A stretch of DNA of 64,000 nt from Enterobacteria phage GEC-3S: sequence record HE978309. One strand, written 5' to 3'. Below are positions 3,532 through 27,193 of this stretch, one piece after another (positions within the stretch are counted from its first letter, which is position 1; every line of letters starts with the position of its first letter). The notes below the pieces were generated by a model, which did not search any database, was not told where the DNA came from, and saw only the letters and a list, made by a program, of their open reading frames with translations. The position numbers and the translations under genes were made by a program.

Positions 3532-3807
3532 TCAGGACATTGCCCTTTTGAATGCGTCCATTATAACAGTGTTATTTGGCTTGTCAACACGTTTTTGAAC
3601 TTTATTTTTAAATTTTTTGTTGATGTGGTGTTTACGATAAACAACCTTTTCACGGTTGGCGTAAGCCTCGCGTGCGTCTTTTACCATCAACCATGCCTTA
3701 GCCGCATCTTGTCCGCTGATCCCGCCAATCTTCTTAGCAATATCAACAAAATTAAGACCGTGGTCTTCGCGTAGCATGTAAACCATTAACGCTGTTTTCT
3801 TGTCCAT
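3532..3807 (-). CDS. Hypothetical protein (91 aa), translationally coupled
   Basis: Internal ATG at 3807 overlaps stop of upstream gene (TGATG); ORF-track ORF extends to 3915. Confidence 0.45.
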   Translation of the reverse strand: MDKKTALMVYMLREDHGLNFVDIAKKIGGISGQDAAKAWLMVKDAREAYANREKVVYRKHHINKKFKNKVQKRVDKPNNTVIMDAFKRAMS

Positions 3808-6556: not shown

Positions 6557-8059
6557 ATGCAAGATATTAAAATTCACTTTCTGAACTACTCCCATGTTCA
6601 AATTGAATGTAGCGATTCAATTTTATTAGAAATGCGAGATTATTTTAGTTTTGAAGTCGAGGGAGCAAGATTTCAAAAAAGATTTAAGTATGGTGGATGG
6701 GATGGGCGTATTCGTCTTTTAGATTACAACGGAAAGCTGCCAATCGGTCTAACTAAAACCGTGGGAATCTTCGCTAAAAATATGGGCTATAGCGTATGGG
6801 TAGATCCTCGCTTATTCGAAAAAGAACAAGTTACAGAAGAAGAAATTACAAAATGGTGTAATGACTTAGAATTATATTCCGGTGCTAACAGGATCACCCC
6901 TCATTGGTATCAATCAAAGGCCGTCTTTGAAGGTATTCATCATAAACGCCGTATGTTAGTTTTGCCTACGTCCGCTGGTAAATCTGCGATTGCTTGTATG
7001 TTGTCTCGTTGGTACTTAGAGAATTACGAAGGGAAAGTGTTGATCATCGTTCCTACCACGTCGCTAGTGCTGCAAATGCGTGATGACTTTGTTGATTATC
7101 GCCAGTTTCCTTATGAAGCAATTCATACTATCATGAGCGGTACTAGTAAACACGTAGGTGATCGCCTGATCGTTGTTAGTACGTGGCAATCTGCATGTAA
7201 ACAACCTAGTGAGTGGTTCCAACAATTCGGGATGGTTATTGTTGACGAATGTCACAAGGCTACTGCTAAAAACCTGCTAAACATCGTTACTGATATGGAT
7301 CATTGCCAATTTAAGATCGGCATGACTGGTTCCCCTCGTGACGGGAAAGCTAACATGATGCAGTATGTCGGGCTTTTTGGTGATATTTCTAAGATCGTGA
7401 GTATTGACCGCCTGATGGAAGAAGGTCAAGTGACAAAACTGAAAATTAACTGCCTTTTCCTTCGTTATACCGATGAGGAATGTAGCGCGGTTAAGGGGCG
7501 AGAATATGCGGAAGAGATCAAGTATATTACATCTAACCCACGACGAAATAAGTTTGCTTGCAATTTGGCGCTAAAACTCGCTAAGAAGGGCGAAAACGTA
7601 TTCCTGATGTTCCGCAATACTAAGCACGGAAAACTTATGTATGATGCGTTACAGAAGGTACACGACAAGGTTTATTATATTGACGGTGGAGTTAAGACAG
7701 AAGAACGTGATGAATTTAAGAAAATGGCGGAGGGTGACACCGGGATCATTTGTGTTGCGTCTTATGGTGTGTTCTCTACTGGTGTTTCAATTAAGAATTT
7801 GCACCATGTTATTTTCGGTCATCCAGTGAAGGAATCAACTATCGTTCGTCAGAGTATCGGTCGTGCATTGCGTAAACATGGTTCGAAAGACATTGCAACG
7901 GTCTGGGATCTTATAGATCATCTGGCGGTGAAGACAAAGAGCAAGAATGCTAAGAAACAGTTTAGTCACCTTAATTATGCTCTTAAACATGCCCTTGAAA
8001 GAATAAAAATTTACAATACCGACCGATTCGAATATGTCACGAAAACCATCGAGATTTAA
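6557..8059 (+). CDS. uvsW: UvsW DNA/RNA helicase
   Basis: Strong similarity to T4 UvsW (FSFE..RF..RF.YG.WDGRIRLLDYN; LPTSAGKS; VDECH; ATVWDLID); GAGG RBS. Confidence 0.93.
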   Translation: MQDIKIHFLNYSHVQIECSDSILLEMRDYFSFEVEGARFQKRFKYGGWDGRIRLLDYNGKLPIGLTKTVGIFAKNMGYSVWVDPRLFEKEQVTEEEITKWCNDLELYSGANRITPHWYQSKAVFEGIHHKRRMLVLPTSAGKSAIACMLSRWYLENYEGKVLIIVPTTSLVLQMRDDFVDYRQFPYEAIHTIMSGTSKHVGDRLIVVSTWQSACKQPSEWFQQFGMVIVDECHKATAKNLLNIVTDMDHCQFKIGMTGSPRDGKANMMQYVGLFGDISKIVSIDRLMEEGQVTKLKINCLFLRYTDEECSAVKGREYAEEIKYITSNPRRNKFACNLALKLAKKGENVFLMFRNTKHGKLMYDALQKVHDKVYYIDGGVKTEERDEFKKMAEGDTGIICVASYGVFSTGVSIKNLHHVIFGHPVKESTIVRQSIGRALRKHGSKDIATVWDLIDHLAVKTKSKNAKKQFSHLNYALKHALERIKIYNTDRFEYVTKTIEI

Positions 8060-8102
8060 TAAATAGGGGATTTAATGCCCCTTTATTCTACGGAGATTAA
8101 AA

Positions 8103-8339
8103 ATGATTAGCTTTAAACGTTTTTTGGTTGAGGCCGCTATTGACGGTTTCATGCGTAAGATTTATTCTTGTAATACTATCGAGGGATTAAATGAACTTGA
8201 GGCATATTATGAGAAGCGCAAGAAAGAAACAGAATTGAAACCTGCTGATGATATTTCGATCCGTGATGCCATCGCTGGACGCCGTAAGCAATTGGAAGCG
8301 GACAACGAGCCAGAAGAGGAGCCGGAAGAGGATTTTTAA
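8103..8339 (+). CDS. uvsW.1: UvsW.1-like small acidic protein
   Basis: 78-aa ORF immediately after uvsW, same position and size as T4 uvsW.1. Confidence 0.8.
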   Translation: MISFKRFLVEAAIDGFMRKIYSCNTIEGLNELEAYYEKRKKETELKPADDISIRDAIAGRRKQLEADNEPEEEPEEDF

Positions 8340-8344
8340 GATAT

Positions 8345-8370
8345 AAAAAAGCCCCATCAATGATGGGGCA
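8345..8370 (-). terminator. Hairpin terminator after uvsY operon
   Basis: AAAAAA then GCCCCATC-AAT-GATGGGGC on plus strand. Confidence 0.5.
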
Positions 8371-8402
8371 AAATAAACCAATTAAAATCGGTTATCAACA
8401 AA

Positions 8403-8579
8403 TTACATTAACAGCATTGTTTGCTCTACGAGTTGTTCTTGTTCTTCGCCGTTCGCATCTTCACTAATCGAACGTTCTGTTACTAGCTGTAAGCAGTAGC
8501 CAGTGTGAACAACGCCGTTTTCTGTCTGGACTGATAACGCATCCTCGACAGGTTGTTTACAACAAATACAGATTTTCAT
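8403..8579 (-). CDS. Small Cys-containing protein (58 aa), uvsY.-2-like position
   Basis: ATG with AGGAGG RBS 7 nt upstream; MKICICCKQPVEDALSVQTENGVVHTGYCLQLV...; below ORF-track cutoff. Confidence 0.45.
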   Translation of the reverse strand: MKICICCKQPVEDALSVQTENGVVHTGYCLQLVTERSISEDANGEEQEQLVEQTMLLM

Positions 8580-8600
8580 AAAAATTCCTCCTGCATGTAT

Positions 8601-9008
8601 TTAGCGACCAGATTCCAGCATACGCAATTCTATAGCATTCTTGATCGCAAATCCACGAGATTTAACGATATCAAGTGCGCGACCAGCAAAATCCATTACC
8701 ATCTGGTAATATGCAATTTTCGTATCAAGCGGTAAGATCTCGTCGTCTGCTGCCATGACAACTTTCAATTCTGATTTCTCATATTCAGCACGACACCAGT
8801 CATCACTACGGTTAGTGTAAAAGTCAAGACGATTTTTCATAGCCTTTTTCTTTTTAGCCTCAAGAGCAATCGTCTCTCTTTTCGCCTCGCTGTAAATCCT
8901 TAACCACTTTGAGTATACTACCGGATTATTCAGCGCCTCCCATTGCAACTTAGTCGCATCGATCTTCATGTCAGCTTCTAATTGTTCTTTCAAATCGTTT
9001 AGGTCCAT
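8601..9008 (-). CDS. uvsY: UvsY recombination mediator
   Basis: Aligns with T4 UvsY (KLQ.EA.NN...YSKWL; YEKSE.K.V; KSRGFAIK). Confidence 0.9.
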   Translation of the reverse strand: MDLNDLKEQLEADMKIDATKLQWEALNNPVVYSKWLRIYSEAKRETIALEAKKKKAMKNRLDFYTNRSDDWCRAEYEKSELKVVMAADDEILPLDTKIAYYQMVMDFAGRALDIVKSRGFAIKNAIELRMLESGR

Positions 9009-9055
9009 AATATCCCCTTATTCACACTAAGACCTATATCATATCACACACAAAA

Positions 9056-9442
9056 TCACTTTGCAAGTCTTATGCGTAGTTGTTCAAGATCATCTGGGTT
9101 ATCTATTACTGAAAAGTAGATTGATACTATGATTGAGTTATCGTCGTACTGCGGGGTTACTTCTACTGTCAGGTTTCGGACCCGTGGTTCATAGTTTCGG
9201 ATCGCCTCATTGATGTTTTTTGATAAGGTATCCACTGTCAGTGGGTTCATGTTCTCAAACAGTGATTTATTGAGATCGCATCCAAACAGTGGATCAAATG
9301 GACGAGATCCCTTGCGAGTAGTCACGATCAGTAGAATAGAATCTTTAACCGCTTTAATCCCTATGTTCTTTTTAACGTCGTTATTCCACGATCTGGATAT
9401 ATTGAGATCCAAATCAGTATACATCTGATTAATAGTTGCCAT
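9056..9442 (-). CDS. 25: Baseplate wedge subunit gp25
   Basis: Aligns with T4 gp25 (TTRKGSRPFDP.FGCDL; RNYEPR; FSVIDNPDD); ATG at 9442 with GAGG RBS. Confidence 0.9.
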   Translation of the reverse strand: MATINQMYTDLDLNISRSWNNDVKKNIGIKAVKDSILLIVTTRKGSRPFDPLFGCDLNKSLFENMNPLTVDTLSKNINEAIRNYEPRVRNLTVEVTPQYDDNSIIVSIYFSVIDNPDDLEQLRIRLAK

Positions 9443-9450
9443 GTTATACC

Positions 9451-10080
9451 TCAAAGAATTTTAAGGAAACTGGATAGACCTGATAATGAATATACACCAG
9501 ATTCCCCGCATTCGCACTTGATCGGTACTGCCAGCGTGATTTGATTTCTTGTTAGCTCGTCGATCACTTCTTCCACTTTATCCGTGGTAAGCATATCCAG
9601 CACGCGGTCAAAGTCCTGTGCGTTCAGGTCGTCTATATTGAATTGCTGATCGCCGATCACGATATATTCGATACATGCAATTACCATCTGCATAATATCA
9701 ACATCTTCTGTAAACTTAGGTTGACGAAACTTGATTTTTACTTGTCCTAAGTCCAGAATATACGGTTCAACTTCTGGTATCTGTGTGCGTGAAACATCAA
9801 GAGAGTATACTTTCTCTTTATTGCATACACCACACACCCAAGTAGCATCAATTTTCATCTTATTGAGGCTGTGACACCATAAGAGAAGAAAAATATATTC
9901 TGCTTCGCATTTCTCTAGCTCTAATGCATTGACCCCCGTACATTCATGTATGATCTCTATAACAACCTCTGACAGCTTGCCAGTCTCTTTTGCTGCTACC
10001 AGTTTTTGAAATTCGCCGAAGGTGAAAGCACGGGCGTGTATCAACTTTTCGCCTAATTGGATCTTGAAAAAGTATTGCAT
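9451..10080 (-). CDS. 26: Baseplate hub subunit gp26 (by position and size)
   Basis: 209 aa, directly upstream of gene 25, CxxC motifs; T4 gp26 is 208 aa. Confidence 0.75.
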   Translation of the reverse strand: MQYFFKIQLGEKLIHARAFTFGEFQKLVAAKETGKLSEVVIEIIHECTGVNALELEKCEAEYIFLLLWCHSLNKMKIDATWVCGVCNKEKVYSLDVSRTQIPEVEPYILDLGQVKIKFRQPKFTEDVDIMQMVIACIEYIVIGDQQFNIDDLNAQDFDRVLDMLTTDKVEEVIDELTRNQITLAVPIKCECGESGVYSLSGLSSFLKIL

Positions 10081-10122
10081 AATAAAACACCCTTTATAAA
10101 CACATAGAATTATTTAGTATTT

Positions 10123-10130
10123 TATAAATA
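10123..10130 (+). promoter_or_regulatory. T4-type late promoter (TATAAATA) for gene 51 operon
   Basis: Exact TATAAATA about 21 nt upstream of gene 51 ATG. Confidence 0.55.
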
Positions 10131-10150
10131 CCCGAAAGGGGGATTATACC

Positions 10151-10921
10151 ATGAATATTATCAGAATAAAACTACCGGAAGGTGTGCAGAGATTTAAACC
10201 ATTCACGGTAAAAGATTATAGAGATTTCCTTCTGGTGTCAACTGAAATTAAGATGAATCCAGAAGAAGAACAAACGATTCTTGATGAGCTATTAGAAGAA
10301 ATATATCCAGACGTAGATCCGGCATTTCGTGAATATATTTTCCTGAATGTCTTTACTAGTTCAATTGGTAAAACTAAGATACCGCTTTGTTTTACTTGCC
10401 CGACTTGCAACAAAGAAAGAAAAATGTTGCTTAACTTACAGATTGAAGCACTAAAACCAATCGTTCTAGAGGCCGCAGGGCTTAAAATAACTTTCCGGTA
10501 TGTTAAACCATCAACCGACTATGCAAAAACGTTTCTGGATGCGATAGAGCGTGTATCTGATGGTATTAATGATTATCTATGGACTGAATTACCGGAAGAA
10601 GTTAGAGAACAGGTTATCGATTCAATCTCATTTGCTGAATTTGAAGAAGTTGTCAAGCAGATGCACACAATCAAGATCGAACAAAAGATATCTTGTTGTG
10701 AAAGTCATGACCTGAAATACATAGGTCTTCTTCCATTATTCAAATTGTTGTTGAATCCAGATGAGTTATTCATCTTTTATCGAATAAACCATCTATTGGC
10801 AAAATCAAATTATTCTATCAGTGATCTTATGGATATGTTACCGGTCGAGAGAAACATTGCACTGACACTGGTCGAGAAAGACGTAAAAGAGGCAAATAAT
10901 GCAAAGAACGGGGTTTCCTAA
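10151..10921 (+). CDS. 51: Baseplate hub assembly protein gp51 (by position)
   Basis: 256 aa, first gene of coupled 51-27-28-29-48-54 operon; CPTCNKE motif similar to gp26. Confidence 0.7.
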   Translation: MNIIRIKLPEGVQRFKPFTVKDYRDFLLVSTEIKMNPEEEQTILDELLEEIYPDVDPAFREYIFLNVFTSSIGKTKIPLCFTCPTCNKERKMLLNLQIEALKPIVLEAAGLKITFRYVKPSTDYAKTFLDAIERVSDGINDYLWTELPEEVREQVIDSISFAEFEEVVKQMHTIKIEQKISCCESHDLKYIGLLPLFKLLLNPDELFIFYRINHLLAKSNYSISDLMDMLPVERNIALTLVEKDVKEANNAKNGVS

Positions 10922-11681
10922 TGTCTCAATAAAACTTTATGCTGTTAATAACGTAACTAGCATGATTGATGCCATCTATAAGGAAGTTCCTTTATGGAAA
11001 CCTACTATAAAGGGTGATAACGTTGTTATTCCTCGTTGTCCGTGGGTTAGTACCATAAATGACTATATGGATTTTGTGAGGGCATACGGGCAAAGCGTAG
11101 AAACAGAGTCTTTCGTGTATTGCTGGGAAGATTTTGATGGTATAACGATAGCTGGACACGATACAATATTAAAAAATGAGCCAATACCAGCTATAATCTG
11201 TGAGCCTAGACTCATGGGGCAATTTATTGATATGTCGCCTAATCTGATGGTTTTTAATTTCGAGTGGCAGACTAAGAGCAATGCTAAAGTTAAAAATTCA
11301 TTTAGCAATGTGACATACACAACTATTGATTTTGTTACTAAGCAGTATAATAAAATTATTGTTGGTAATGGGGATAACATTGCACACTTTGTTCATGGTG
11401 GCGCTTATGGCGATTTAACTTATAAGAATGCGTTTTTGGAAGGTTCTAAACTTGCCACAATAGAACAATATGATTCATATGCTACCGCCGTGTGTCACGG
11501 TAATTTTTCGTTGCGCCCCGGTATGGTTATTCGATTCTTTGATGAGAAGCAACAAGCACGCAATGATTTTATTGTTGACGAAGTGGTGCATGAAATTAGC
11601 CGAGAGCAATCATTAACTCACCTGTATATGATCGGTAACAGCGAAGAATTACAGGAAGTCAAATTTGAAGGTAAGATATAA
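10899..11681 (+). CDS. 27: Baseplate hub subunit gp27
   Basis: N-terminus (MQRTGFPNVSIKL) and C-terminal half align with T4 gp27 (GQFI; HGGAYGD.TYKN; QYD.YA; GNF.L.PG; VDEV.HE.S...THLYM); shorter than T4 (260 vs 391 aa). Confidence 0.8.
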   Translation: MQRTGFPNVSIKLYAVNNVTSMIDAIYKEVPLWKPTIKGDNVVIPRCPWVSTINDYMDFVRAYGQSVETESFVYCWEDFDGITIAGHDTILKNEPIPAIICEPRLMGQFIDMSPNLMVFNFEWQTKSNAKVKNSFSNVTYTTIDFVTKQYNKIIVGNGDNIAHFVHGGAYGDLTYKNAFLEGSKLATIEQYDSYATAVCHGNFSLRPGMVIRFFDEKQQARNDFIVDEVVHEISREQSLTHLYMIGNSEELQEVKFEGKI

Positions 11682-12199
11682 TGACAGAAACTAAACCTAT
11701 GTTAAAATTTGTTGTTCCTGTAAAAAAATTAGATATAAACGGGAAACATATCAAGATCCCAAAAATGGGGATTAAGCAACATCGATTATTAAAAGATGTT
11801 CGTAGCTGTGATGAAACATTAAAGATTCTTCTTGATTCAATCTGTCCTGGGTTAAACGCTGCCGAGTCTGAATTGGTTATGCTTAACCTTTGTGCGTTTA
11901 ATGGTAAGTGTCTGGAAGAAAAGGATGGTCTTAAGCTGTCTGATGTGTATATTTGTACAGAGACTGAATTTACTTTAAATGGTAAAGTCTTTAAATTTAA
12001 AAATCCAATGTATACTTCTGACCCCATTATCGATGACGCTGATTTCTTGAGTCATCATTATCACGATCCTAGTGTAGACTTCCATGATTTCCCAGCTTTT
12101 ATTATGGATTGGGCTACAGGATTAAGAAAAACTATTGCACTGGATACACCGGAAGGTACTATCTATGGTGGAATTAACATATTGGATCGCCTATCATGA
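11681..12199 (+). CDS. 28: Baseplate hub distal subunit gp28 (by position and size)
   Basis: 172 aa, TAATG coupling to gene 27; T4 gp28 is 177 aa. Confidence 0.7.
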   Translation: MTETKPMLKFVVPVKKLDINGKHIKIPKMGIKQHRLLKDVRSCDETLKILLDSICPGLNAAESELVMLNLCAFNGKCLEEKDGLKLSDVYICTETEFTLNGKVFKFKNPMYTSDPIIDDADFLSHHYHDPSVDFHDFPAFIMDWATGLRKTIALDTPEGTIYGGINILDRLS

Positions 12200-13929
12200 A
12201 TGACGCATTAACATCATTTCGCGGGATGCGCAAGGAAGCGGAAGAAAACCCGATTGATAAACTTAACAAATTAGATAAACTTGATTCTATTGATAATTTG
12301 CAAGCCGCTACCGAATTGGTGGCGGAGACAGTAGAACAAAAATCTAATGAAGTTGTTGGTGCGGTAGAGGATAACACCGCAGCCAATGAATTGACGGCAG
12401 AAAATACACAATCTACCGCTGGCAATACCAAAAAAACTTATGAAGAATTGCAAAAACTCAATAATTTCTCTTCTCAGATGAATGAGAAATTACGTGGTTT
12501 TGGTGTTATGATGGAACGTAGATTTGGTGTTGTCAGTAAAATGGCTAGCGGTATTGGTGCGATTGAAGAAGCACTGAAAAAACCGGAACAACCGCAAACA
12601 ATGCCATCACCTCAGCCAGTTTTGCCTACTGTGCCGGAACAGCCTAATAATGACAACTATCAAGGTCTTCCAAAGAAAAAACCAGATGTTGAGGAACGGA
12701 AGAAAAAGAACGCCACAGATAAGCGTAATGCCGATTCTATGGAAAATCTTCTTAAAGTTGTTCGTGGAGGATTTAAAGAAACCATAGGTATCTCTAATAA
12801 GGTCTTAGGGATGTTATTTAAGATCACCTTGACCGCTATGGCAGAAGCCGCAAAATGGGGCGCTATTTTGATGGGTATTGTTTTTGCCATTGATACCCTT
12901 ATGATTCATTTCAGATATTGGAGTGATTTATTCGAAACAAAATTTGATGAATTTATGGATAAAGCCGGAGAATGGGCTGGACCAATTAGTGATATTCTAA
13001 CAACTATTCGTCAAGTTCGAGATTATTGGTCTAAAGGCGAATATGGAGAGTTAATTAAATCTCTTGTTATGGGTATTGGTGATGCATTCTATAAAACCTT
13101 TATCCAACTTGATCGAATTATCACTACTGGTATTGCTAAAATTCTTCGCATGATCCCTGGTATGGGTGATTATGCCGATAAGTTAGAATACGGTGCTTTA
13201 AAGTCTGCTGTCGCTCAAGGCTATACTCCAAATGAAAGAGAACTCGAATTAATGGATAAGGTCGAGTCTGAACATGAAGAAGACAAATATGGAGAGCGTA
13301 CTGGTTGGACCGGAAAAGCCCGTGATATTGGCGAAGCTATTGGGGATTCTATTAAGGATAAAGTTAACGAAGGTCTTGTTAGTCTGGGCTGGCGAGATCA
13401 AAAGGATGTTGACGCAGAGAAACGACAAGAAGAATTAAAACGCGGGGAATATAAGTCTGTTTCTGCTGAACAACGATCTGCTAGTCGTAAACTTAGAATT
13501 AAAAGCGAGGGCGCGATCAATAATATTAATGAAGTTATGGAGAATTTGAGCGGTGACTATGACAAAGAAAGAATGGGAGAGTTGAAAAAGGATATTGATG
13601 TTTACCGTGAGCAAGTTCAAGATCCTACATTAGTTGAAAGTGATCGTTCTCAGTTAGAGCGTCTTATTGAAAAATTTGATGAGATGTATGCTGATAAAAC
13701 TAAGGGTGCGGTTCCAACTAATCCTGTTCCTGCAACTGAAACGGAAACAGCAAAACAAGCGGAACGTACTGAACAAATGCAGAAACAAGCTGCAATCCAG
13801 CAACAAACGACAAATCAGACCTCAAACGTAAATAATACACAAATTGTAACAAACAATAGAACTGTTAAACAGGGTGCACCAACAACTAGAATTGATGCCC
13901 CCGGTACAATTAATATGGGGAACTTTTAA
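12196..13929 (+). CDS. 29: Tail tube length determinator gp29 (by position and size)
   Basis: 577 aa, ATGA overlap with gene 28, coiled-coil-rich; T4 gp29 is 590 aa. Confidence 0.75.
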   Translation: MNDALTSFRGMRKEAEENPIDKLNKLDKLDSIDNLQAATELVAETVEQKSNEVVGAVEDNTAANELTAENTQSTAGNTKKTYEELQKLNNFSSQMNEKLRGFGVMMERRFGVVSKMASGIGAIEEALKKPEQPQTMPSPQPVLPTVPEQPNNDNYQGLPKKKPDVEERKKKNATDKRNADSMENLLKVVRGGFKETIGISNKVLGMLFKITLTAMAEAAKWGAILMGIVFAIDTLMIHFRYWSDLFETKFDEFMDKAGEWAGPISDILTTIRQVRDYWSKGEYGELIKSLVMGIGDAFYKTFIQLDRIITTGIAKILRMIPGMGDYADKLEYGALKSAVAQGYTPNERELELMDKVESEHEEDKYGERTGWTGKARDIGEAIGDSIKDKVNEGLVSLGWRDQKDVDAEKRQEELKRGEYKSVSAEQRSASRKLRIKSEGAINNINEVMENLSGDYDKERMGELKKDIDVYREQVQDPTLVESDRSQLERLIEKFDEMYADKTKGAVPTNPVPATETETAKQAERTEQMQKQAAIQQQTTNQTSNVNNTQIVTNNRTVKQGAPTTRIDAPGTINMGNF

Positions 13930-14987
13930 TGAAAATTAGTGTTATCAATGATGCCGTTGATAGCTTTAAAGCGGGGGTTAAAACCTCCGCTGGTTTTACC
14001 TCAAAAAATAAAGGAAAAACATTAACCGCTCAATTCCCCGCTGAACGTGCTAGCGGTAATGATGCTAGCGGTTATTATATCAACGACTTATATAATAATG
14101 GTCTGTTATTCACTGCATACGATTATACATCTCGTACTACTGGATCGTTGCGTGATTTCAGGAAAAAGAAAAATGTTGCTAGCGGTTTTGGCGGTAGCGT
14201 TAATATCGCTGGTTTTGATTTAAATTTGGGAGGGAGAAATGCTGCATTTGACCGCGAGGCAATTGCTAATATTCTTCTTCCTCGTAGTCAATCTGACGTT
14301 GACGCTGCTAGCCATAAGTTTAATGATGTTGGTGAATCTGTCATTTCTCGCGGCGGTGGTACTTTAGGCGGTGCTCTTTCTAATATGGCATCTACTGCCG
14401 TTTTTGGTGGTATCGAAAGTATTACTGGTGGATACCTTGCCGATCACGGTGAACAGATTTATAATACTGCGCGAAGCATGTATGCGGGTGCTGACGCACG
14501 AACTAAAAACTACGTATGGCATTTAACCCCACGTAGTATTGAAGACCTTCGCAATATTCTGATCATATACGAAACGTTTTTAGAATTGTCTTATGGATCT
14601 AGTGGTATTTCCAGCACCGCAAAAGAATTAAAAGCGGAAGTTGATGCGTGGTATAAAAATACACTATTGAGAAAATCCACCCCAGAGGAAGCGAAGAGAA
14701 ATGATACTCTGTTTGAAGGGATCACCGATTTTCTATCAAACGCAATTACTGTATCTAACCCGACAATATGGATGATCTCTAACTTCGGTAAGCGTACATC
14801 GTTTGAAGGGCGTAGCGATGCATTTGGTCCCGCTCAGATCTCAAGTGTACGTCTGGACAAGTCGCCGGATGGTAAGTTTAATGGCCTTGCTATTTCTCCT
14901 AACTTGCCGAGTACCTTTGTTCTGGAAGTATCATTTAGAGAGATCTTGACACTTTCCCGTGGTACTATATTTGGGAGTGCGGTATAA
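13929..14987 (+). CDS. 48: Baseplate tail tube cap gp48 (by position and size)
   Basis: 352 aa, TAATG coupling; T4 gp48 is 364 aa. Confidence 0.75.
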   Translation: MKISVINDAVDSFKAGVKTSAGFTSKNKGKTLTAQFPAERASGNDASGYYINDLYNNGLLFTAYDYTSRTTGSLRDFRKKKNVASGFGGSVNIAGFDLNLGGRNAAFDREAIANILLPRSQSDVDAASHKFNDVGESVISRGGGTLGGALSNMASTAVFGGIESITGGYLADHGEQIYNTARSMYAGADARTKNYVWHLTPRSIEDLRNILIIYETFLELSYGSSGISSTAKELKAEVDAWYKNTLLRKSTPEEAKRNDTLFEGITDFLSNAITVSNPTIWMISNFGKRTSFEGRSDAFGPAQISSVRLDKSPDGKFNGLAISPNLPSTFVLEVSFREILTLSRGTIFGSAV

Positions 14988-15919
14988 TGTTTGATTTAAA
15001 TGATTTTAACGAACAAGCCGCTAACCTTGACTTTCAGCGATCCAACTTATTCAGCGTGGCATTTGCCACCACTCCAAGTAATAAGACACAAGCGATCCTA
15101 GAAAGTATGGGCGGTGCGGTATATGATATTATACCAAATGCATTAAATGACTATTTCGGGATTACTCGTGGTGATTATACTGACGCATTAACAAATCTTG
15201 CTGTACAGGGTGTTAGGCGTGCTGTTGATTCATCCGGTGTCAAAAAGTATCTTTTAGGTGCAATGTCATCCCGCGTAGTTCAATCTCTTCTGGGGCAATT
15301 TGATGTTGGTACATATGCGCTTGACTGGTTCAATATGGCATATAAGACAAGCGGTCTTCTGGTGTATGCTGTTAAGGTTCCAGAAAACAGATTGAATTAT
15401 GAAATGGACCGTAACCACAATGCGCCAAACATTCGAATTACCGGACGTGATTTTGATCCGCTTGTGTTGAGCTTTAGAATGGACTCTAGCGCATCAAACT
15501 ATAGAGCAATGCAGGATTGGGTTAACTCAGTAGAAGACCCCGTCACAGGGCTTCGTGCGCTTCCTGTTGACGTTGAAGCGGATATTCAGGTCAACTTACA
15601 TAACCGAATGGGAGTCCCTCACACGATTATGATGTTTAATGGTTGTGTTCCTGTTGGTGTGAGTGCACCGGAATTAACCTATGAAAACAACAACGAAATT
15701 ACAACATTCGATGTTACTTTCGCATATCGTTCTATGCAAACTGGTGCTGTAGGAGAGCAAGCCGCGCGAGAATGGATTGAGGATAAGGCAATAAACGCAA
15801 TAACAAACACTTTCGGCAATAATTTACTTGATAGTGGGTTATCTGCTGCTGGTAATGCTTTATCGCGTCTAAATGGCGTTGGTGGGCGTGTGGTGAATAC
15901 TGTCACTAACTGGTTCTGA
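14987..15919 (+). CDS. 54: Baseplate tail tube initiator gp54 (by position and size)
   Basis: 310 aa, TAATG coupling; T4 gp54 is 320 aa. Confidence 0.75.
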   Translation: MFDLNDFNEQAANLDFQRSNLFSVAFATTPSNKTQAILESMGGAVYDIIPNALNDYFGITRGDYTDALTNLAVQGVRRAVDSSGVKKYLLGAMSSRVVQSLLGQFDVGTYALDWFNMAYKTSGLLVYAVKVPENRLNYEMDRNHNAPNIRITGRDFDPLVLSFRMDSSASNYRAMQDWVNSVEDPVTGLRALPVDVEADIQVNLHNRMGVPHTIMMFNGCVPVGVSAPELTYENNNEITTFDVTFAYRSMQTGAVGEQAAREWIEDKAINAITNTFGNNLLDSGLSAAGNALSRLNGVGGRVVNTVTNWF

Positions 15920-15925
15920 TAAGCG

Positions 15926-15955
15926 AAAGGCGGGGATTATCCCCGCCTTTTTATT
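15926..15955. terminator. Bidirectional rho-independent terminator between gene 54 and minus-strand alt cluster
   Basis: AAA-GGCGGGG-ATTAT-CCCCGCC-TTTTTATTTT. Confidence 0.7.
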
Positions 15956-16436
15956 TTGCTAAATCATTGCAATATTTTAGTGCCTTAGTTTGAAATTCTG
16001 CGCTGTTAAGTTCTTCATAACGGTCATAATCACCGTTTAATGCTGCCTTTCTTGCTTCTTGCTCTATCTGCATGTCAGACATGATAATACAGCGATCCCG
16101 TGCTTTCATCTTCTCAAGTTGTTTAGACTCTTCTTTCTGCTTGCGCAATTCTTCTTGACGCTTCTTTTCTTCTTGTTCTTTCTCTTCCCGCGCTTCTTTG
16201 ATTGCATCCTTGAACATCTGCGTTTGTGGTGCTAAACCAACTTTAACGCGATCCACGTCTCGACGTTCCATTTTAGAAATAAAGCATGATTCGATCTGGT
16301 CATCACTTGCATATGCTGCTTTACATTCACGAAGCAAGAAAACCGGATCTGATTTAGCATTCATCATAGCTTCCATGTTGGTACAACCAGTAAGCATGAA
16401 TGCAGCCGCAAGACCAATCAGTTTAATCATTTTCAT
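15951..16436 (-). CDS. Predicted lipoprotein with charged coiled-coil region
   Basis: N-terminal signal peptide with lipobox LTGC; KEAREEKEQEEKKRQEELRKQKEESK; GGTGAGGTGA RBS; coupled to upstream ART gene. Confidence 0.6.
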   Translation of the reverse strand: MKMIKLIGLAAAFMLTGCTNMEAMMNAKSDPVFLLRECKAAYASDDQIESCFISKMERRDVDRVKVGLAPQTQMFKDAIKEAREEKEQEEKKRQEELRKQKEESKQLEKMKARDRCIIMSDMQIEQEARKAALNGDYDRYEELNSAEFQTKALKYCNDLAK

Positions 16437-17257
16437 TTAGTCACCTCACCGAAAATTGTAAATTGTCTACGATTCTCATCGCCGAAAGATTCTACTACGT
16501 CGTTTACCTTGACGCAAGTCCCGCGCGGTAAAATTACTTCACATTCGCAAGGGTTCCATGCAATTGATCCAACAACAAAACCTTTATGATCTTTTACGTC
16601 AATTACCCATGATACATTACAAGAATGTTGCATCTTTCCGGTCATGGATTCATATCGATTCTCACAATAAAGGCTAGTGCTATTTGAAAGCCAGCCTCCA
16701 AAGATGATTGGTGTCATGCTGGTCGATACAAAGTTTTTAAAGGTAAACTCCTTATCTTCAATAATACGCTCTATTGTCTGAATGTCAAGATGTTGACCGC
16801 GATAAAGAGTACCGTTTAACTTTTCGGTTTTATCCATGACACAATCCATCAAATCAACAATCTCTGATATCTCATCGGTCATGTCTTCTTCCCCTAAGAG
16901 AGCACCATTTACCCATTCGTATTGTTCAGACACATAATCACAGATTGCATTATATTCTGCTGGGGTTATGTTGTTATGTTTGTAATGTTTGAATACATTA
17001 TCTCCAAAGTCTTCGGAGTGTACTTCATACATCACATTAATGATTTTCTTGACAAATCCATAATCTTGTGTCTCGCGCTCAAGGAAGCGGATAACCTTCA
17101 CATAATCATCAAAGTTAATCTGATCGCTGATCATCTCAGTGATCATGTAACCATTAATCCCCTCAATGTCATATGTTTCGATGTAATTATCCATACGTTC
17201 CATCATTGATTCGCGTGATTCTTCTGAAAGACGAAAATCCTGTAATTTCTTGAACAT
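16433..17257 (-). CDS. Alt-like ADP-ribosyltransferase paralog (R-S-E class)
   Basis: TLYRGQ (Arg), NFVSTSMTP (STS), ECEVILPRG (ExE) motifs, matching Alt C-terminal catalytic motifs. Confidence 0.7.
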   Translation of the reverse strand: MFKKLQDFRLSEESRESMMERMDNYIETYDIEGINGYMITEMISDQINFDDYVKVIRFLERETQDYGFVKKIINVMYEVHSEDFGDNVFKHYKHNNITPAEYNAICDYVSEQYEWVNGALLGEEDMTDEISEIVDLMDCVMDKTEKLNGTLYRGQHLDIQTIERIIEDKEFTFKNFVSTSMTPIIFGGWLSNSTSLYCENRYESMTGKMQHSCNVSWVIDVKDHKGFVVGSIAWNPCECEVILPRGTCVKVNDVVESFGDENRRQFTIFGEVTK

Positions 17258-17335
17258 TTTAAACCTCCCATATAACAGAAAACGGGGCTAGTATAAAACT
17301 AGTCCCCGTTTGAGTCAACCATTATTTCTTAAAAA

Positions 17336-19387
17336 TTACATTTTAAATTTATCTGGCATTGCGTCTACAGATACCAGATCAGCGATAAGCTGACGTAGAG
17401 TTGCCTTATCTGCTTTCTTACGTTCGGTTTTAGCTTCGCTAATGAAGCTGGAGAAAGACAGGTCAGAAGCAGGTTTAACAACACCCTCACGGATGAATGC
17501 ATCACCGTCCGCGATCATCTCGCCAGATTCTTGTAATGCTGCCAGTTCACTTTTGTTCATAATATGTGCCTCAATGTAATAAGTTTCTTGTGAATCCGTA
17601 GATGCCGTAGCACGAGTTACCGTATCAAAGGATAACACAACACCGCGAGGAAGTAAAATCTCGCATTCTTTGTAAGCAAATGCTTTGTTACCTACTGGCA
17701 ATACAGGGATGTTTTCCGCGCCAGCAATGGAGAAAGCAACATTAGCGCCACCTTCACCGCGAGATCCAGCCATAGAATCTACCCCAGCAACGGCACTAGC
17801 CACGTTTGCATTCCAGCCGCCAAAAATGTTAGGTGCAAGGGAAGTGCTCACGTAGTTTTTAAAGTAAAACGCTTTTTGCTTACGTGCAGTTTCCCACATT
17901 TGAGACCGGAAGTCCATACCACGATACAGAATAGTACCCGGATCAAGTTTAACGCCATAGTTAGAGAAGGCATTATCCAGTGCATCGCACATCTTGACCA
18001 ATTCTTCTGGATCTGCGATTCCCTCAAACTCTTCCAGCTTGCGATCAGTTAGGAAGTTGTTCATATTGATGTATGCTGCATCGGCATATTCGCTCAACAC
18101 AAAACCTTCCGCGCCCGGCAGATCAAGATCAATATCTGCCATCATTTCACCCATGTTGCTAGCAATTGCTTCAAACATACCGGAAGCAACATTACGAAGG
18201 GCATCGGTTTTAATCTGGGTGATATGACTACGCAGCATTTCAGCTTTTACATCTGCTGGCATAGACTGGTCTACTCGATCCATTGCCAGGGCGGTGATCT
18301 TGTTTTCGAATACTTCCTCGCTCATGATTTCTTTTAAGCGTTTGATTGATGCTGCGATAACTTCCGCAGACAACGGATCATATTGATCCTGAACTTTTAC
18401 CAGTTCGCTTACTGCGTATTTTGCATCGGCTTCGCTTTCAAAAATAGTACGCATGAAACCATAGCGAGTGATAATATCACTTGTCCAGTCATTCAGAGAA
18501 CGGGCGGTTGAACGTTCTAAGGCTTGACGGTCAATCAGAGTATTAAACTGTTTCTTAGGTTCTGCTTCGGTGATATCTTCTTCCGGTTTAAGATTAATTT
18601 TTTCTGGATGATTCACATAGTCGCTGTTATAGGTCGCTTGAGTTTTCAGCATTTCTTCTTTAGTCAAACGAGATTTAGCCGCTACGCGTTGTTCTGCTTC
18701 CGCGTTTCGTTCTTCTTCTGACACAAGACTAGCCGCATATGCCTCATCTTTAGTCAGAGATTCACCAGTAGCCTTAGATACCCAGCGATCACCTAAATCA
18801 CTTTCTACTTTAGTGAACAAGGATTCATCAAGTTTAATCCCTTTAATCTTATCAATCGCCATCCCGCGACGCTTGACAACAACTAAAGCGATCTTTTTGC
18901 TGGTCATTACTTCCTGCTGGAATACTTCAAACTTCGGTGTACGACGCACCAAACGCTCTATAACGCGCTTAACCAGTTCGGTCTTACCTTTCATGCGGGA
19001 TACGTTAAAACGGAACATAACAGCGTCTAATTGCGCTTTACGGGCTGTTTCCATAACCACATCAAACGCACTTGCCATAACTGCAATCGGGTTATCGCCT
19101 AGACCATTTTTAAGCTGTACAATACGACCGCTTTTGTTCATTTCGCACAGTACAACATGTGCGGTCTTGTCGCCCATACGAATGATTTTAGGTGTTTTGT
19201 TGGTGAAGTTACAAAGACGGACAATCACATCTTTATCGCGTGTCTGTACTGCAAAAAGCTGTTTAGGATTCTGCTTAGGCTTTAAGCACTGTACCGGAGC
19301 AATACTGCCAAAGTTTTCTTCCTCTTCCGTCAACAGCCATTTCTCGAAAGATTCAATCATTAGATCGTCGATTTCTAAGTTAAACAT
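17336..19387 (-). CDS. alt: Alt ADP-ribosyltransferase
   Basis: 683 aa (T4 Alt 682 aa), T4 position next to gene 54; ILYRGMDFR, NYVSTSLAP, YKECEILLPRG motifs. Confidence 0.85.
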   Translation of the reverse strand: MFNLEIDDLMIESFEKWLLTEEEENFGSIAPVQCLKPKQNPKQLFAVQTRDKDVIVRLCNFTNKTPKIIRMGDKTAHVVLCEMNKSGRIVQLKNGLGDNPIAVMASAFDVVMETARKAQLDAVMFRFNVSRMKGKTELVKRVIERLVRRTPKFEVFQQEVMTSKKIALVVVKRRGMAIDKIKGIKLDESLFTKVESDLGDRWVSKATGESLTKDEAYAASLVSEEERNAEAEQRVAAKSRLTKEEMLKTQATYNSDYVNHPEKINLKPEEDITEAEPKKQFNTLIDRQALERSTARSLNDWTSDIITRYGFMRTIFESEADAKYAVSELVKVQDQYDPLSAEVIAASIKRLKEIMSEEVFENKITALAMDRVDQSMPADVKAEMLRSHITQIKTDALRNVASGMFEAIASNMGEMMADIDLDLPGAEGFVLSEYADAAYINMNNFLTDRKLEEFEGIADPEELVKMCDALDNAFSNYGVKLDPGTILYRGMDFRSQMWETARKQKAFYFKNYVSTSLAPNIFGGWNANVASAVAGVDSMAGSRGEGGANVAFSIAGAENIPVLPVGNKAFAYKECEILLPRGVVLSFDTVTRATASTDSQETYYIEAHIMNKSELAALQESGEMIADGDAFIREGVVKPASDLSFSSFISEAKTERKKADKATLRQLIADLVSVDAMPDKFKM

Positions 19388-19427
19388 TTTATATCCTCTA
19401 GTTGATAACCTATAAACCTATATTTAT

Positions 19428-19455
19428 GAAAAAGGGGCTTAACGCCCCCTTTTAT
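19428..19455. terminator. Hairpin terminator between small early gene and alt
   Basis: AAAAA-GGGGC-TTAA-CGCCCC-TTTTA. Confidence 0.6.
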
Positions 19456-19951: not shown

Positions 19952-19981
19952 ATTATAGGGGATCACCGATCCCCTGTCAAC
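19952..19981 (-). promoter_or_regulatory. Sigma70-like early promoter with palindromic spacer
   Basis: TTGACA - GGGGATCGGTGATCCCC (17 nt) - TATAAT on minus strand. Confidence 0.6.
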
Positions 19982-19987
19982 AACTTT

Positions 19988-20506
19988 TTAGTTATTTTTT
20001 AATTGCTCATCTTGCAATAGGGAAATCACATGCTGGCGATGTTCTTCCGATTGAGGAACACCGAAAAAGTTTGTTTTGTAGAAATACTCTAATCGGTCTT
20101 CTCGTGTGCTCTCTTCCATCATGATCGCGGGTAGTCCGAGATTTCGGAAACGTCGCTTTTCTGCTGGCGTAAAATCACTGTAATACAACATAGAATCATC
20201 ATTACCCGCAATGCTAAATTCATCCTTCATAAAGGAGAATATTGCGTTTAAACGCTGTTTACCGTCCACGATTTCGATCTCATAGCGAGATCCATCATCA
20301 ATCTTAGCCATTGCGATAGCACCAACCGGAAAATCATTAATCAGGTTTTCGATAAACATACGTTTGTTTTCGGTGTCCCATACCAAAGGACGCTGATAAT
20401 CTGGGTTCATGTTGATATAGCCATCTTCTAACCACGCCTCATAAACAGAGATGACAAAGTTTTTAGTATTGGTATAGTAACGGCGTTTAGGCGTTAAACG
20501 GTTCAT
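19988..20506 (-). CDS. DUF262 / ParB-like nuclease-domain protein
   Basis: NPDYQRPLVWD ... IVDGKQRLNAI resembles DUF262 DGQQR-type motif; ATG at 20506 with GGAG RBS, adjacent to stop of upstream gene. Confidence 0.6.
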   Translation of the reverse strand: MNRLTPKRRYYTNTKNFVISVYEAWLEDGYINMNPDYQRPLVWDTENKRMFIENLINDFPVGAIAMAKIDDGSRYEIEIVDGKQRLNAIFSFMKDEFSIAGNDDSMLYYSDFTPAEKRRFRNLGLPAIMMEESTREDRLEYFYKTNFFGVPQSEEHRQHVISLLQDEQLKNN

Positions 20507-20507
20507 G

Positions 20508-20840
20508 TTATAGTCTCCTGAATGGATCATCACGTAAATCAATATCTTTTAAGAACTCATCCCATGAATGGCGGATATTGTTCTTAATTCTCCAGATAAG
20601 CGCAGGGATTGAACGCTCTCCCATCTGGAAGTAGGGATCATATGATCCGTATGCCCAATATGCTACTACAATTCCACAATCAGCGCAATAGTATTCTATT
20701 TCACTTGCTGGCGACCAAATTCCATCAATATGATCGGTGATCCTGCTTTCGATGTTATGGCTATGGCAATCAGGGCAACGGATGCAATGACCTTGTTTAT
20801 CGTAATTTGACGTTAGCGAATACTTAAACAATCTCATCAT
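20508..20840 (-). CDS. Cys/His zinc-ribbon-like protein (110 aa)
   Basis: CIRCPDCHSH ... CADCG; ATGA overlap with upstream methyltransferase-like gene. Confidence 0.55.
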   Translation of the reverse strand: MMRLFKYSLTSNYDKQGHCIRCPDCHSHNIESRITDHIDGIWSPASEIEYYCADCGIVVAYWAYGSYDPYFQMGERSIPALIWRIKNNIRHSWDEFLKDIDLRDDPFRRL

Positions 20841-21553
20841 AGATCCTTATTGGCTTCAAATACTGCCTTTGCGAATCCTCGCGGGGTAAGTGACCTGATA
20901 GTCTTTGTTCTGGTTCCTTTCCCGCCTAGCTTAGAATGCTGTTTACTGTACCCTTTATTAATATGCAACGGTTTCTTTTCTGGCATTATAAAGCCTTGTC
21001 CGGTCCATAAGCAAGTCTTTTTCGGGTACATATCACGGGCGGCGATATACTCAGGAAACGTAGGATGTTTATCATCTTCCGGCAAATAACCGCCATATTC
21101 CCACGGATGGAACATGTAATCAGGCTTACGCCACATACTAGAGATAACGCTTACAGGATTCTCTATCATGTAGGGAACTCCTAGCCATTCACCCAAATAA
21201 GCGGTTATTTTAGCTGCCCGTACATCATGAACTTGAATCAACGGTCCTTGTTCTCGTTTCTTTCGTTCAAAGTGTGCAGCGCCACTAACAGCTAAATTGG
21301 TACACGGTGGGAATGCAAAGATAATATCCGGTTTCCCCCATTCAAGGTCCATTGCTCTTTCCAGCCAGTTCAAATCAATCCAGGTGTTTACATAGGTAAT
21401 GTTTGGATGTTCAAATCTGGTATTATACTTTTTGTATGTACCGTGGTCGGCGTCATCCGCATTAAAGCAGACTACCTTATGACCTGCTTTAGCCCATTCT
21501 AGACCCATTATCCCCGATCCATCAAAGTTGCAGAATATTAATTTTTGTTTCAT
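20837..21553 (-). CDS. Compact DNA (cytosine-5)-methyltransferase-like protein
   Basis: Motif I FCNFDGSGIMG, motif IV FPPCTNLAVSG, motif VI MIENP, C-terminal RSLTPRGFAKA in canonical C5-MTase order; only 238 aa. Confidence 0.6.
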   Translation of the reverse strand: MKQKLIFCNFDGSGIMGLEWAKAGHKVVCFNADDADHGTYKKYNTRFEHPNITYVNTWIDLNWLERAMDLEWGKPDIIFAFPPCTNLAVSGAAHFERKKREQGPLIQVHDVRAAKITAYLGEWLGVPYMIENPVSVISSMWRKPDYMFHPWEYGGYLPEDDKHPTFPEYIAARDMYPKKTCLWTGQGFIMPEKKPLHINKGYSKQHSKLGGKGTRTKTIRSLTPRGFAKAVFEANKDL

Positions 21554-25604: not shown

Positions 25605-25634
25605 AGTATAGGGGATCGGTGATCCCCTGTCAAC
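25605..25634 (-). promoter_or_regulatory. Sigma70-like early promoter with palindromic spacer
   Basis: TTGACA - GGGGATCACCGATCCCC - TATACT on minus strand. Confidence 0.6.
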
Positions 25635-26767: not shown

Positions 26768-26798
26768 ATTATAGGGGATCTCCCGATCCCCTGTCAAC
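26768..26798 (-). promoter_or_regulatory. Sigma70-like early promoter with palindromic spacer
   Basis: TTGACA - GGGGATCGGGAGATCCCC - TATAAT on minus strand. Confidence 0.6.
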
Positions 26799-27162: not shown

Positions 27163-27193
27163 ATTATAAGGGGATCACCGATCCCCTGTCAAC
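27163..27193 (-). promoter_or_regulatory. Sigma70-like early promoter with palindromic spacer
   Basis: TTGACA - GGGGATCGGTGATCCCC - TATAAT on minus strand. Confidence 0.6.

Follow-up and report, generated by a model that had tools for sequence, protein, structure and literature searches.

A predicted early cassette of an Alt-derived ADP-ribosyltransferase and a variable lipoprotein next to alt in Krischvirus phages

In phage T4 the ADP-ribosyltransferase (ART) Alt is made late, packaged in heads and injected, while the related enzymes ModA and ModB are synthesised in the cell. Additional genes derived from alt are a recurrent and published theme at the alt locus of T4-like phages, and Nolan et al. 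2006 (PMC1524935) listed RB49ORF183c, 44RR ORF188c and T4 alt.-1/alt.-2 as paralogous duplications of alt. For phages phi1 and RB49 the layout of a composite element called PeSL (promoter-early/stem-loop) is described in Arbiol et al. 2010 (PMC2839356), which also contains reporter assays that gave promoter and terminator activity for other PeSL elements than the one treated here. In this work we analysed the alt locus in a stretch of 64,000 nucleotides (nt) from Enterobacteria phage GEC-3S (record HE978309), hereafter the window, to which all coordinates refer unless another record is named. In this locus alt is followed by a gene for a second ADP-ribosyltransferase, which we call ART2, and by a gene for a lipoprotein. 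The reading that we prefer, at a probability of roughly 0.55, is that a late, packaged alt unit stands beside an early cassette of ART2 and the lipoprotein, in which the lipoprotein acts independently of ART2. What we read directly are sequence features, fold, synteny, conservation and the allele pattern of the lipoprotein, and from these we infer expression timing, enzyme activity, localisation and the function of the lipoprotein.

The region is 99.5% identical in nucleotide sequence to that of phage Phi1 (Krischvirus, RB49 group of T4-like phages) and is common to 57 phage records at no less than 95% identity, the gene order being the same in the 57 Krischvirus records. All three genes lie on the minus strand and the order of transcription is alt, ART2, lipoprotein. 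The alt gene (17336-19387, 683 amino acids (aa), with the catalytic domain at about residues 425-610) corresponds to Phi1 alt/ORF184, ART2 (16433-17257, 274 aa) to Phi1 ORF183 and PHROG 15144, and the lipoprotein open reading frame (ORF; 15951-16436, 161 aa) to Phi1 ORF182 and PHROG 16112. Downstream of the lipoprotein gene are genes 54 and 48 (tail-tube/baseplate) on the opposite strand, gene 54 being convergent with the lipoprotein gene. RefSeq names Phi1 ORF183 "ADP-ribosyltransferase", and the record of phage W115 names ORF182 "putative lipoprotein". An alt paralog at this site was thus already published in 2006 and has been listed in RefSeq and PHROGs ever since, T4-like phages commonly have alt in tandem duplication, and both the enzyme and the lipoprotein have been catalogued before; the sole new point of the present analysis is the variation of the lipoprotein among near-identical phages. 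We found no literature on virion proteomics, expression or function of the Krischvirus alt, ART2 and lipoprotein genes.

Both ART proteins exceed the curated cut-off of 23.4 bits for Pfam PF03496 (ADPrib_exo_Tox), ART2 with 59.3 bits (E 4.3e-16, residues 82-266) and Alt with 37.3 bits (E 2.3e-09). The initial annotation, which had placed a 683-aa Alt beside a 274-aa ORF with the same R/STS/ExE triad, is borne out by these matches and by intact motifs at the expected ORFs, and the alignment of the two catalytic domains that it called for gives 37% identity over 109 catalytic-core residues (E 1e-16) with the catalytic residues kept. More specifically, ART2 contains LYRG at 151 (R153), S178-T179-S180 and E238-x-E240 (ECE at 238), and Alt contains LYRG at 487 (R489), STS at 514-516 and E574-x-E576 (ECE at 574). 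The R/STS/ExE residues of ART2 stand in the required order and align with the motifs of both Alt and T4 Alt. Together with the upstream residues Y108, N117 and L120, they are invariant in eight ART2-family sequences with identities down to 24%, and the catalytic residues are also retained in the metagenomic members L011, L019 and L018. ART2 itself is at least 97% identical across all 57 isolates.

The AlphaFold2 model of ART2 (predicted local distance difference test score, pLDDT, of 79; loop 186-210 of low confidence) predicts an ART fold. Its top Foldseek matches are C3bot2, Vis, Certhrax, iota Ia and CDTa, with a probability of 1.0 and E values of 2e-10 to 2e-8, Tre1 (6dre_B) appears at rank 45, and the target-normalised template modelling (TM) score against single-domain enzymes such as C3bot2 and Vis is 0.6-0.67. 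ART2 would thereby share fold and catalytic triad with the C3/Vis/iota-type enzymes of the arginine-serine-glutamate (R-S-E) family, although it is only 13-20% identical to them and has about 90 additional helical residues at its N-terminus, which it shares with Alt. The Glu-x-Glu form of the motif is that of the arginine-specific enzymes of the R-S-E family, as in Alt. No signal peptide or hydrophobic segment was found in ART2, the maximum 19-residue hydropathy being 0.99. We consider it quite likely that ART2 is an active arginine ADP-ribosyltransferase that works early and in the cytoplasm.

With regard to the origin of ART2, we compared it with Alt over the full length. The 683-aa ORF matches the whole Alt profile (PHROG 802, E 6e-180, residues 16-683), its Phi1 counterpart is annotated alt, and it has in common with T4 alt the site by gene 54 as well as the positions of a terminator and a late promoter upstream; by these matches it is the T4 Alt ortholog. 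The second match of ART2 in the PHROG library, after its own family 15144, is to the same Alt family (PHROG 802, E 3.2e-45), and it covers only positions 330-602 of 674 in the Alt profile, which correspond to the catalytic part and about 90 residues of preceding helices. ART2 is without the first ~330 residues of Alt and without its C-terminal extension of about 90 residues, a tail that ends in a "...MPDKFKM"-like sequence and is kept by other second alt copies. From this alignment ART2 is taken to be an Alt-derived paralog and not an Alt: it shares the catalytic domain and the R/STS/ExE residues with T4 Alt, but lacks the N-terminal domain and the tail and is preceded by an early-type promoter of its own. 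When catalytic domains were placed in a distance tree, the ART2 sequences grouped as a separate clade, about equally far (0.73-0.84) from the resident Alt, from T4 Alt and from other second copies. The near-equal distances indicate that the split is old and that there was no recent local duplication, and a recent origin of ART2 by duplication of the resident alt is thereby ruled out.

A second alt-derived gene directly downstream of alt is also seen in T4 (alt.-1/alt.-2), in 44RR (ORF187c/188c) and in L015, a T-even-like metagenomic contig of 166 kb. The arrangements differ in what has been kept. T4 retains only the N-terminal relics alt.-1 and alt.-2, which according to its record go back to a duplicated first part of alt, whereas in L015 (2086-6599) the sequence after alt is an entire second copy, broken into two ORFs of 273 aa (N-terminal) and 415 aa (catalytic), and the Krischviruses have the catalytic part only. 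The L015 arrangement is intermediate between a full alt duplication and the T4 relics. In L015 the split copy is followed by alt.-3 (DUF5498), at the place where the lipoprotein gene follows ART2 in the Krischviruses. T4 alt.-3 was considered as a counterpart of the lipoprotein and rejected, as its product is without a signal peptide and falls in another family (DUF5498).

The enzyme sets of the two groups of phages are different, consisting of Alt, ART2 and one Mod protein in Krischvirus and of Alt, ModA and ModB in T4. It had been pointed out in the initial annotation that T4 encodes ModA and ModB elsewhere, which is true for T4, and Phi1 in addition has a single Mod-family gene (L006 9096-9599, 167 aa), next to srd and outside the window, in place of the modA-modB pair of T4; its product shows 33% identity (E 8e-11) with T4 ModB and 23% with ModA. 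ART2 is 14-17% identical to ModA/ModB when aligned, and no Mod-type family was found among its PHROG matches, all of its family matches being Alt-like, which places ART2 outside the ModA/ModB family. It resembles ModA and ModB in size class, in R-S-E chemistry and, as far as can be judged, in being synthesised in the cell and not injected, and by this analogy ART2 may fill a role similar to theirs. The idea that ART2 replaces a missing Mod protein is only partly true, since Phi1 keeps one Mod homolog. The Krischvirus set thus differs from that of T4, and the targets of ART2 would show how flexible the host-takeover toolkit is.

The transcription signals divide the locus into what appear to be two units. 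Upstream of alt, between ORF185 and alt, lies a terminator hairpin on the minus strand (19434..19448, GGGGC-GTTAA-GCCCC and then a T-run); a terminator is also found at the equivalent site in T4 and in the metagenomic relative L007, and Nolan 2006 (PMC1524935) predicted one as 'alt<--RB49ORF185c'. About 35 nt upstream of the alt ATG is a box resembling a late promoter, CATAAATA (19421..19428, minus), to which we assign this function tentatively. At the homologous position T4 has the canonical late promoter TATAAATA and L007 has AATAAATA. No exact TATAAATA was found before alt or ART2, CATAAATA before alt being the only such box, and the 78-nt spacer between alt and ART2 holds no late-promoter box. 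This spacer contains a composite promoter/stem-loop of the PeSL type (17281..17318, minus). It consists of a sigma-70 promoter before ART2, TTGACT-17 nt-TATACT at 17290-17318 (minus), and a G+C-rich stem-loop followed by TTTTCT at 17281-17310, the stem-loop overlapping the -10 box of the promoter and folding as RNA at -20.6 kcal/mol (z = -4.3). The element is kept, with small stem-preserving changes, in metagenomic loci where ART2 is 42-48% identical, and Nolan 2006 (PMC1524935) predicted an early promoter, Pe:112388, directly upstream of RB49 ORF183c.

The spacer element has the AT-rich stretch, the sigma-70 promoter, the G/C stem-loop over the -10 box and the subsequent Shine-Dalgarno sequence and ATG that are described for the PeSL of phi1 and RB49, although it differs in being kept in position across divergent relatives and in having no flanking mobile ORFan. 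By this layout it falls within the PeSL definition, and its activity is predicted; it is not among the examples shown or tested in the accessible part of PMC2839356. The window as a whole supports this assignment. When TTGACW-N16-18-TATAMT was counted as the promoter consensus on both strands, 13 occurrences were found where 0.25 would be expected, and 12 of the 13 lie on the minus (early) strand. Several of them hold internal GGGGATC...GATCCCC stems, and as a set they are the PeSL cassettes already published for phi1 and RB49. Beyond the one before ART2, consensus promoters on the minus strand are found at 19952-19980, 25605-25633, 26768-26797 and 27163-27192 and at 3560, 4132, 31991, 42940, 44165, 45259 and 47618, and their intergenic regions also gave short repeated matches to one another in BLAST against phage Whisky.

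At the other end, between the lipoprotein gene and gene 54, is a bidirectional intrinsic terminator (15925..15951, both strands) with a 12-bp stem including 7 G-C pairs, which Nolan 2006 (PMC1524935) predicted as '54-><-RB49ORF182c'. From these signals we infer that alt forms a late unit whose product is packaged, as in T4, and that ART2 and the lipoprotein form an early unit expressed in the cell, which is probably not packaged. That ART2 is probably made early in the cell, and not injected, follows from the absence of the N-terminal ~330 residues and the tail of Alt and from its own sigma-70 promoter. In this respect, and only in this respect, the suggestion of a distinct delivery in the initial annotation is plausible; the part in which the envelope lipoprotein serves as target or delivery route is not supported.

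The lipoprotein gene begins with an ATG that overlaps the ART2 stop codon as ATGA, with a GAGG Shine-Dalgarno sequence just upstream, in agreement with the initial annotation, which describes the gene as translationally coupled. Its first 18 codons, MKMIKLIGLAAAFMLTGC (16383..16436, minus), specify a lipoprotein signal peptide with the lipobox L-T-G-C, and the mature domain (15951..16382, minus) comprises 143 aa and a stop codon and behaves as a hypervariable allele cassette. The N-terminus, MKMIKLIGLAAAFM-LTGC, has a positive n-region, a hydrophobic core and a lipobox that fits the pattern [LVI][ASTVI][GAS]C. A lipobox-like motif with Cys occurs in every family member (LTGC, LNGC, INGC, LVGC, LFGC or MTGC), some of these differing from the strict pattern in position one or two, and the supplement of Nolan 2006 (PMC1524935) gives a SignalP signal peptide at residues 1-20 of RB49 ORF182c. 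In family members the residue at +2 after the lipid-modified Cys is Thr, Ala or Ser and never Asp. According to the sorting rule of Escherichia coli, a +2 residue other than Asp leads to the outer membrane. Sorting to the outer membrane is therefore predicted, and the 161-aa ORF very probably encodes an outer-membrane lipoprotein.

As to the highly charged coiled-coil noted earlier, the mature lipoprotein is 42% charged, D/E/K/R making up 68% of residues 76-116, and the AlphaFold2 model (pLDDT 87.6) is all-helical with a single long helix over residues 72-133. Four Cys residues are invariant (38, 51, 116 and 156). A word-indexed search combined with an exhaustive profile search of 1.84 billion representative proteins found only ten clusters (50% identity) of 103-174 residues, and all eight family sequences retrieved have the lipobox and the four conserved Cys. 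All readable contexts are T4-like phage DNA, and the lipoprotein constitutes an ORFan family restricted to such phages. No informative structural match to the model was found in the PDB or in a library of viral structures, the latter returning its own family only.

Several known envelope proteins were considered as relatives. T5 Llp, Cor, T4 Spackle and Imm are expressed early and exported, as is predicted for the window lipoprotein; Llp and Cor are moreover lipid-anchored, as is also predicted here, and Spackle is helical with Cys pairs capable of forming disulfides, yet none of them shows detectable homology to it. For Cor, no homology was found beyond the signal peptide: the match to PHROG 1119 has an E value of 0.0084, no stretch passes alone and the best part is residues 1-45. 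Likewise, T4 Spackle was rejected as a homolog (hhalign probability 7.6%, confined to the signal-peptide region). No homolog of T4 Imm or Spackle was found by tblastn in Phi1 or the window, where Dmd, the positive control, was found. An o-spanin or u-spanin was also rejected, the neighbours being ART2 and gene 54, the C-terminus hydrophilic and pseT.2/pseT.3 located elsewhere in Phi1.

It is evident from the comparison of isolates that the lipoprotein varies where the rest of the locus does not. Three types of mature part, A, B and C, were found, which are only about 30% identical to one another. Type A occurs in the window and 48 other records, type B in Whisky, PTE-Eco09, 011D4, E26, PHB13 and G37-3, JK32 has a type-B mature part with a different signal peptide, and AV108 has type C. 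ART2 is nevertheless 99.6-100% identical to that of the window in the type-B and type-C records, and 97.8% identical in JK32. Nucleotide homology between the window and Whisky or AV108 ends exactly at the Cys18 codon (16383), and that between the window and JK32, with its other signal peptide, ends at 16404; beyond the breakpoint homology resumes in gene 54 at 83-87%. The signal peptide of JK32 (L012 2322-2834) is MKIIKLIGLAALVAMLNGC, joined to a type-B mature lipoprotein, and that of AV108 (L013 2322-2834) is similar, with M3 for I3, and is joined to the third mature type, of which the C-terminal third is type-B-like. These mixed combinations of signal peptide and mature part indicate that recombination has also taken place inside the lipoprotein gene.

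The lipoprotein cassette lies at the right-hand end of a larger divergent block. Between the window (8051-16383) and Whisky (L020 8160-16761) a block of 8.3 kb is only 72-78% identical, with 97% identity on both flanks. It contains uvsY, genes 25-29, 48 and 54 and the mature lipoprotein, and the baseplate-hub/tail-tube module appears to move between Krischviruses as one unit. Compared with the window, the proteins of Whisky are 99.7% (Alt), 99.6% (ART2), 35% (lipoprotein), 86.7% (gene product (gp) 54) and 75.9% (gp48) identical, while for the distant phage L007 the corresponding values are 46.8%, 45.3%, 41%, 81.6% and 80.7%. Since the lipoprotein of Whisky is farther from that of the window than is the lipoprotein of L007, the alleles must be old. 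With regard to the adhesin, Whisky, PTE-Eco09 and AV108 have a Phi1-type gp38, whereas 011D4, E26, PHB13 and JK32 have a gp38 of the 82-84% type. Type A occurs with both gp38 types, and lipoprotein type and gp38 type show no co-variation across isolates. Deeply divergent lipoprotein alleles are swapped between otherwise near-identical phages of the therapeutic type.

Despite this variation, a member of the lipoprotein family directly follows ART2 in every readable context, that is in the 57 isolates and in L007, L008, L011, L018 and L019. The junction is either an overlap (ATGA in the window and in L018) or a 1-nt gap, and the order holds in relatives of only ~45% identity. It should be underlined that tight or overlapping gene junctions are the norm across the Phi1-type genome, and that in T4-type genomes an ATGA overlap is an ordinary way for genes to be packed. 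That the two genes always stay together is best accounted for by their being expressed jointly and early from a single conserved cassette.

On the preferred reading, the locus would work as follows. Alt, encoded behind a terminator and a late-promoter-like box, would presumably be made late, packaged and injected, as its T4 counterpart is. The composite sigma-70 promoter/stem-loop would halt read-through from alt and start a transcript of ART2 and the lipoprotein, which would end at the bidirectional terminator that gene 54 also uses. ART2, seen as an ancient offshoot of Alt that consists of the catalytic domain only, has all the R-S-E residues of the arginine-specific (ExE) type and carries no export signal, would most likely modify host proteins in the cytoplasm in the first minutes of infection, in a role like that of T4 ModA/ModB and as a supplement to the single Mod homolog. 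The lipoprotein would be exported, receive its lipid at Cys18 and be sorted to the outer membrane, from which a helical rod, highly charged and stabilised by disulfides, would face the periplasm. There the lipoprotein would act apart from ART2 and early in infection, as an envelope factor that shields the infected cell, with the exclusion of superinfecting relatives as the most likely means. There is room for such an exclusion factor because tblastn found no homolog of T4 Imm or Spackle in Phi1 or the window, but we propose superinfection exclusion or envelope protection as the function of the lipoprotein only tentatively, as a possibility that is less probable than not. Should it prove to be an exclusion factor, the joint behaviour of such phages in cocktails would be affected.

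Other readings of ART2 and of its relation to the lipoprotein have to be weighed against this one. That the two proteins are functional partners, the lipoprotein neutralising or escorting ART2 in the manner of toxin and immunity protein or directing it to an envelope target, is suggested by their adjacency in 57/57 Krischvirus records and in all readable divergent metagenomic contexts; ART toxins with cognate immunity genes are moreover known, and the Foldseek matches of ART2 include Tre1/Tri1 (6dre) and the Listeria ART-ARH pair. ART2 is without a signal peptide, however, so the two proteins are expected in different compartments, mature alleles of ~31-35% identity stand beside nearly invariant ART2 sequences without co-variation, the breakpoint at the lipobox codon parts the two genes cleanly, and tight junctions are usual throughout the genome. 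Both a physical partnership and a function of the lipoprotein as a route for ART2 are disfavoured by the absence of co-variation, by the clean breakpoint and by the predicted difference in compartment, and we consider a functional pair improbable. For the same reasons, the proposal that the lipoprotein is the target or the delivery route of ART2 did not hold, as ART2 has no segment for export or membrane insertion and stays the same while the lipoprotein alleles are swapped. Somewhat less probable still is that ART2 is, as a second enzyme besides Alt, packaged in heads and injected. In favour of this are its membership of the Alt lineage (PHROG 802), its place beside alt and a weak PHROG match (E 3.3e-05) to a 'head maturation protease' family, which shows that ART domains can be joined to head proteins, but the N-terminal ~330 residues and the conserved C-terminal tail of Alt are absent, a terminator separates alt from ART2, the 78-nt spacer offers a sigma-70 promoter and no late-promoter box, and ART2 is predicted to be cotranscribed with an exported lipoprotein. 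A decaying, inactive duplicate like T4 alt.-1/alt.-2 is very improbable: non-catalytic relics of an alt duplication do occur at the same site in T4 and the ART2 loop 186-210 is modelled at low confidence, whereas the near-identity of ART2 in 57/57 isolates, the invariance of its nicotinamide adenine dinucleotide (NAD)-binding and catalytic residues in homologs with as little as 24% identity, and the promoter and Shine-Dalgarno sequence that it has to itself all speak against decay.

For the lipoprotein, the main alternative is that it masks the receptor of gp38 (OmpA on K-12) in the way of T5 Llp, Cor or TraT. TraT is a lipoprotein that protects against OmpA-specific phages, and Llp and Cor are small proteins. 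The window lipoprotein is predicted to be of the early type and sorted to the outer membrane, which would suit such a function. RB49-like phages bind OmpA or O antigen via gp38 and depend on OmpA on rough strains (PMC9569957), and T5 Llp, an early lipoprotein that blocks FhuA (as cited in PMC11990801), provides a precedent. Receptor masking is nonetheless disfavoured by the comparison with gp38, as alleles A, B and C occur with both gp38 types without co-variation; in addition, the similarity to Cor is limited to the signal-peptide region (residues 1-45 of the PHROG 1119 match), and the size and the helical rod shape are unlike Llp and Cor, so that we hold it to be unlikely. We see an equally small chance that the lipoprotein represents a new class of exclusion factor, a charged helical rod, braced by disulfides and anchored in the outer membrane, that would intercept the tail-tip/hub apparatus of superinfecting relatives in the periplasm. 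If true, this would explain why the alleles predate the split from L007, why the breakpoint falls at the lipobox codon and why allele type tracks the baseplate-hub module rather than the gp38 adhesin; the alleles would be kept diverse by phage-against-phage conflict, and one early cassette would pair a cytoplasmic takeover enzyme with an envelope shield. A part in lysis, as a spanin-like protein or a lysis-timing factor, would agree with a predicted outer-membrane lipoprotein whose long helix could span the periplasm, but it is very improbable, given that the canonical pseT.3/pseT.2 spanins are encoded elsewhere in Phi1, that the lipoprotein has no adjacent inner-membrane partner and no C-terminal membrane segment, and that an early-type promoter precedes the cassette.

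Two observations concern the surroundings of the locus. Upstream of alt, on the minus strand, the window encodes a DUF262-domain protein (19988-20542; Phi1 ORF187) and a DNA methyltransferase (20837-21553; Phi1 ORF189), both of which are non-T4 genes that lie among small ORFans with PeSL elements between them. Whisky (L020 7035-8160) has an extra segment of ~1.1 kb with a 361-aa hypothetical ORF between uvsW and uvsW.1, which is absent from the window (between 8051 and 8060) and is possibly a mobile insertion, for example a homing endonuclease.

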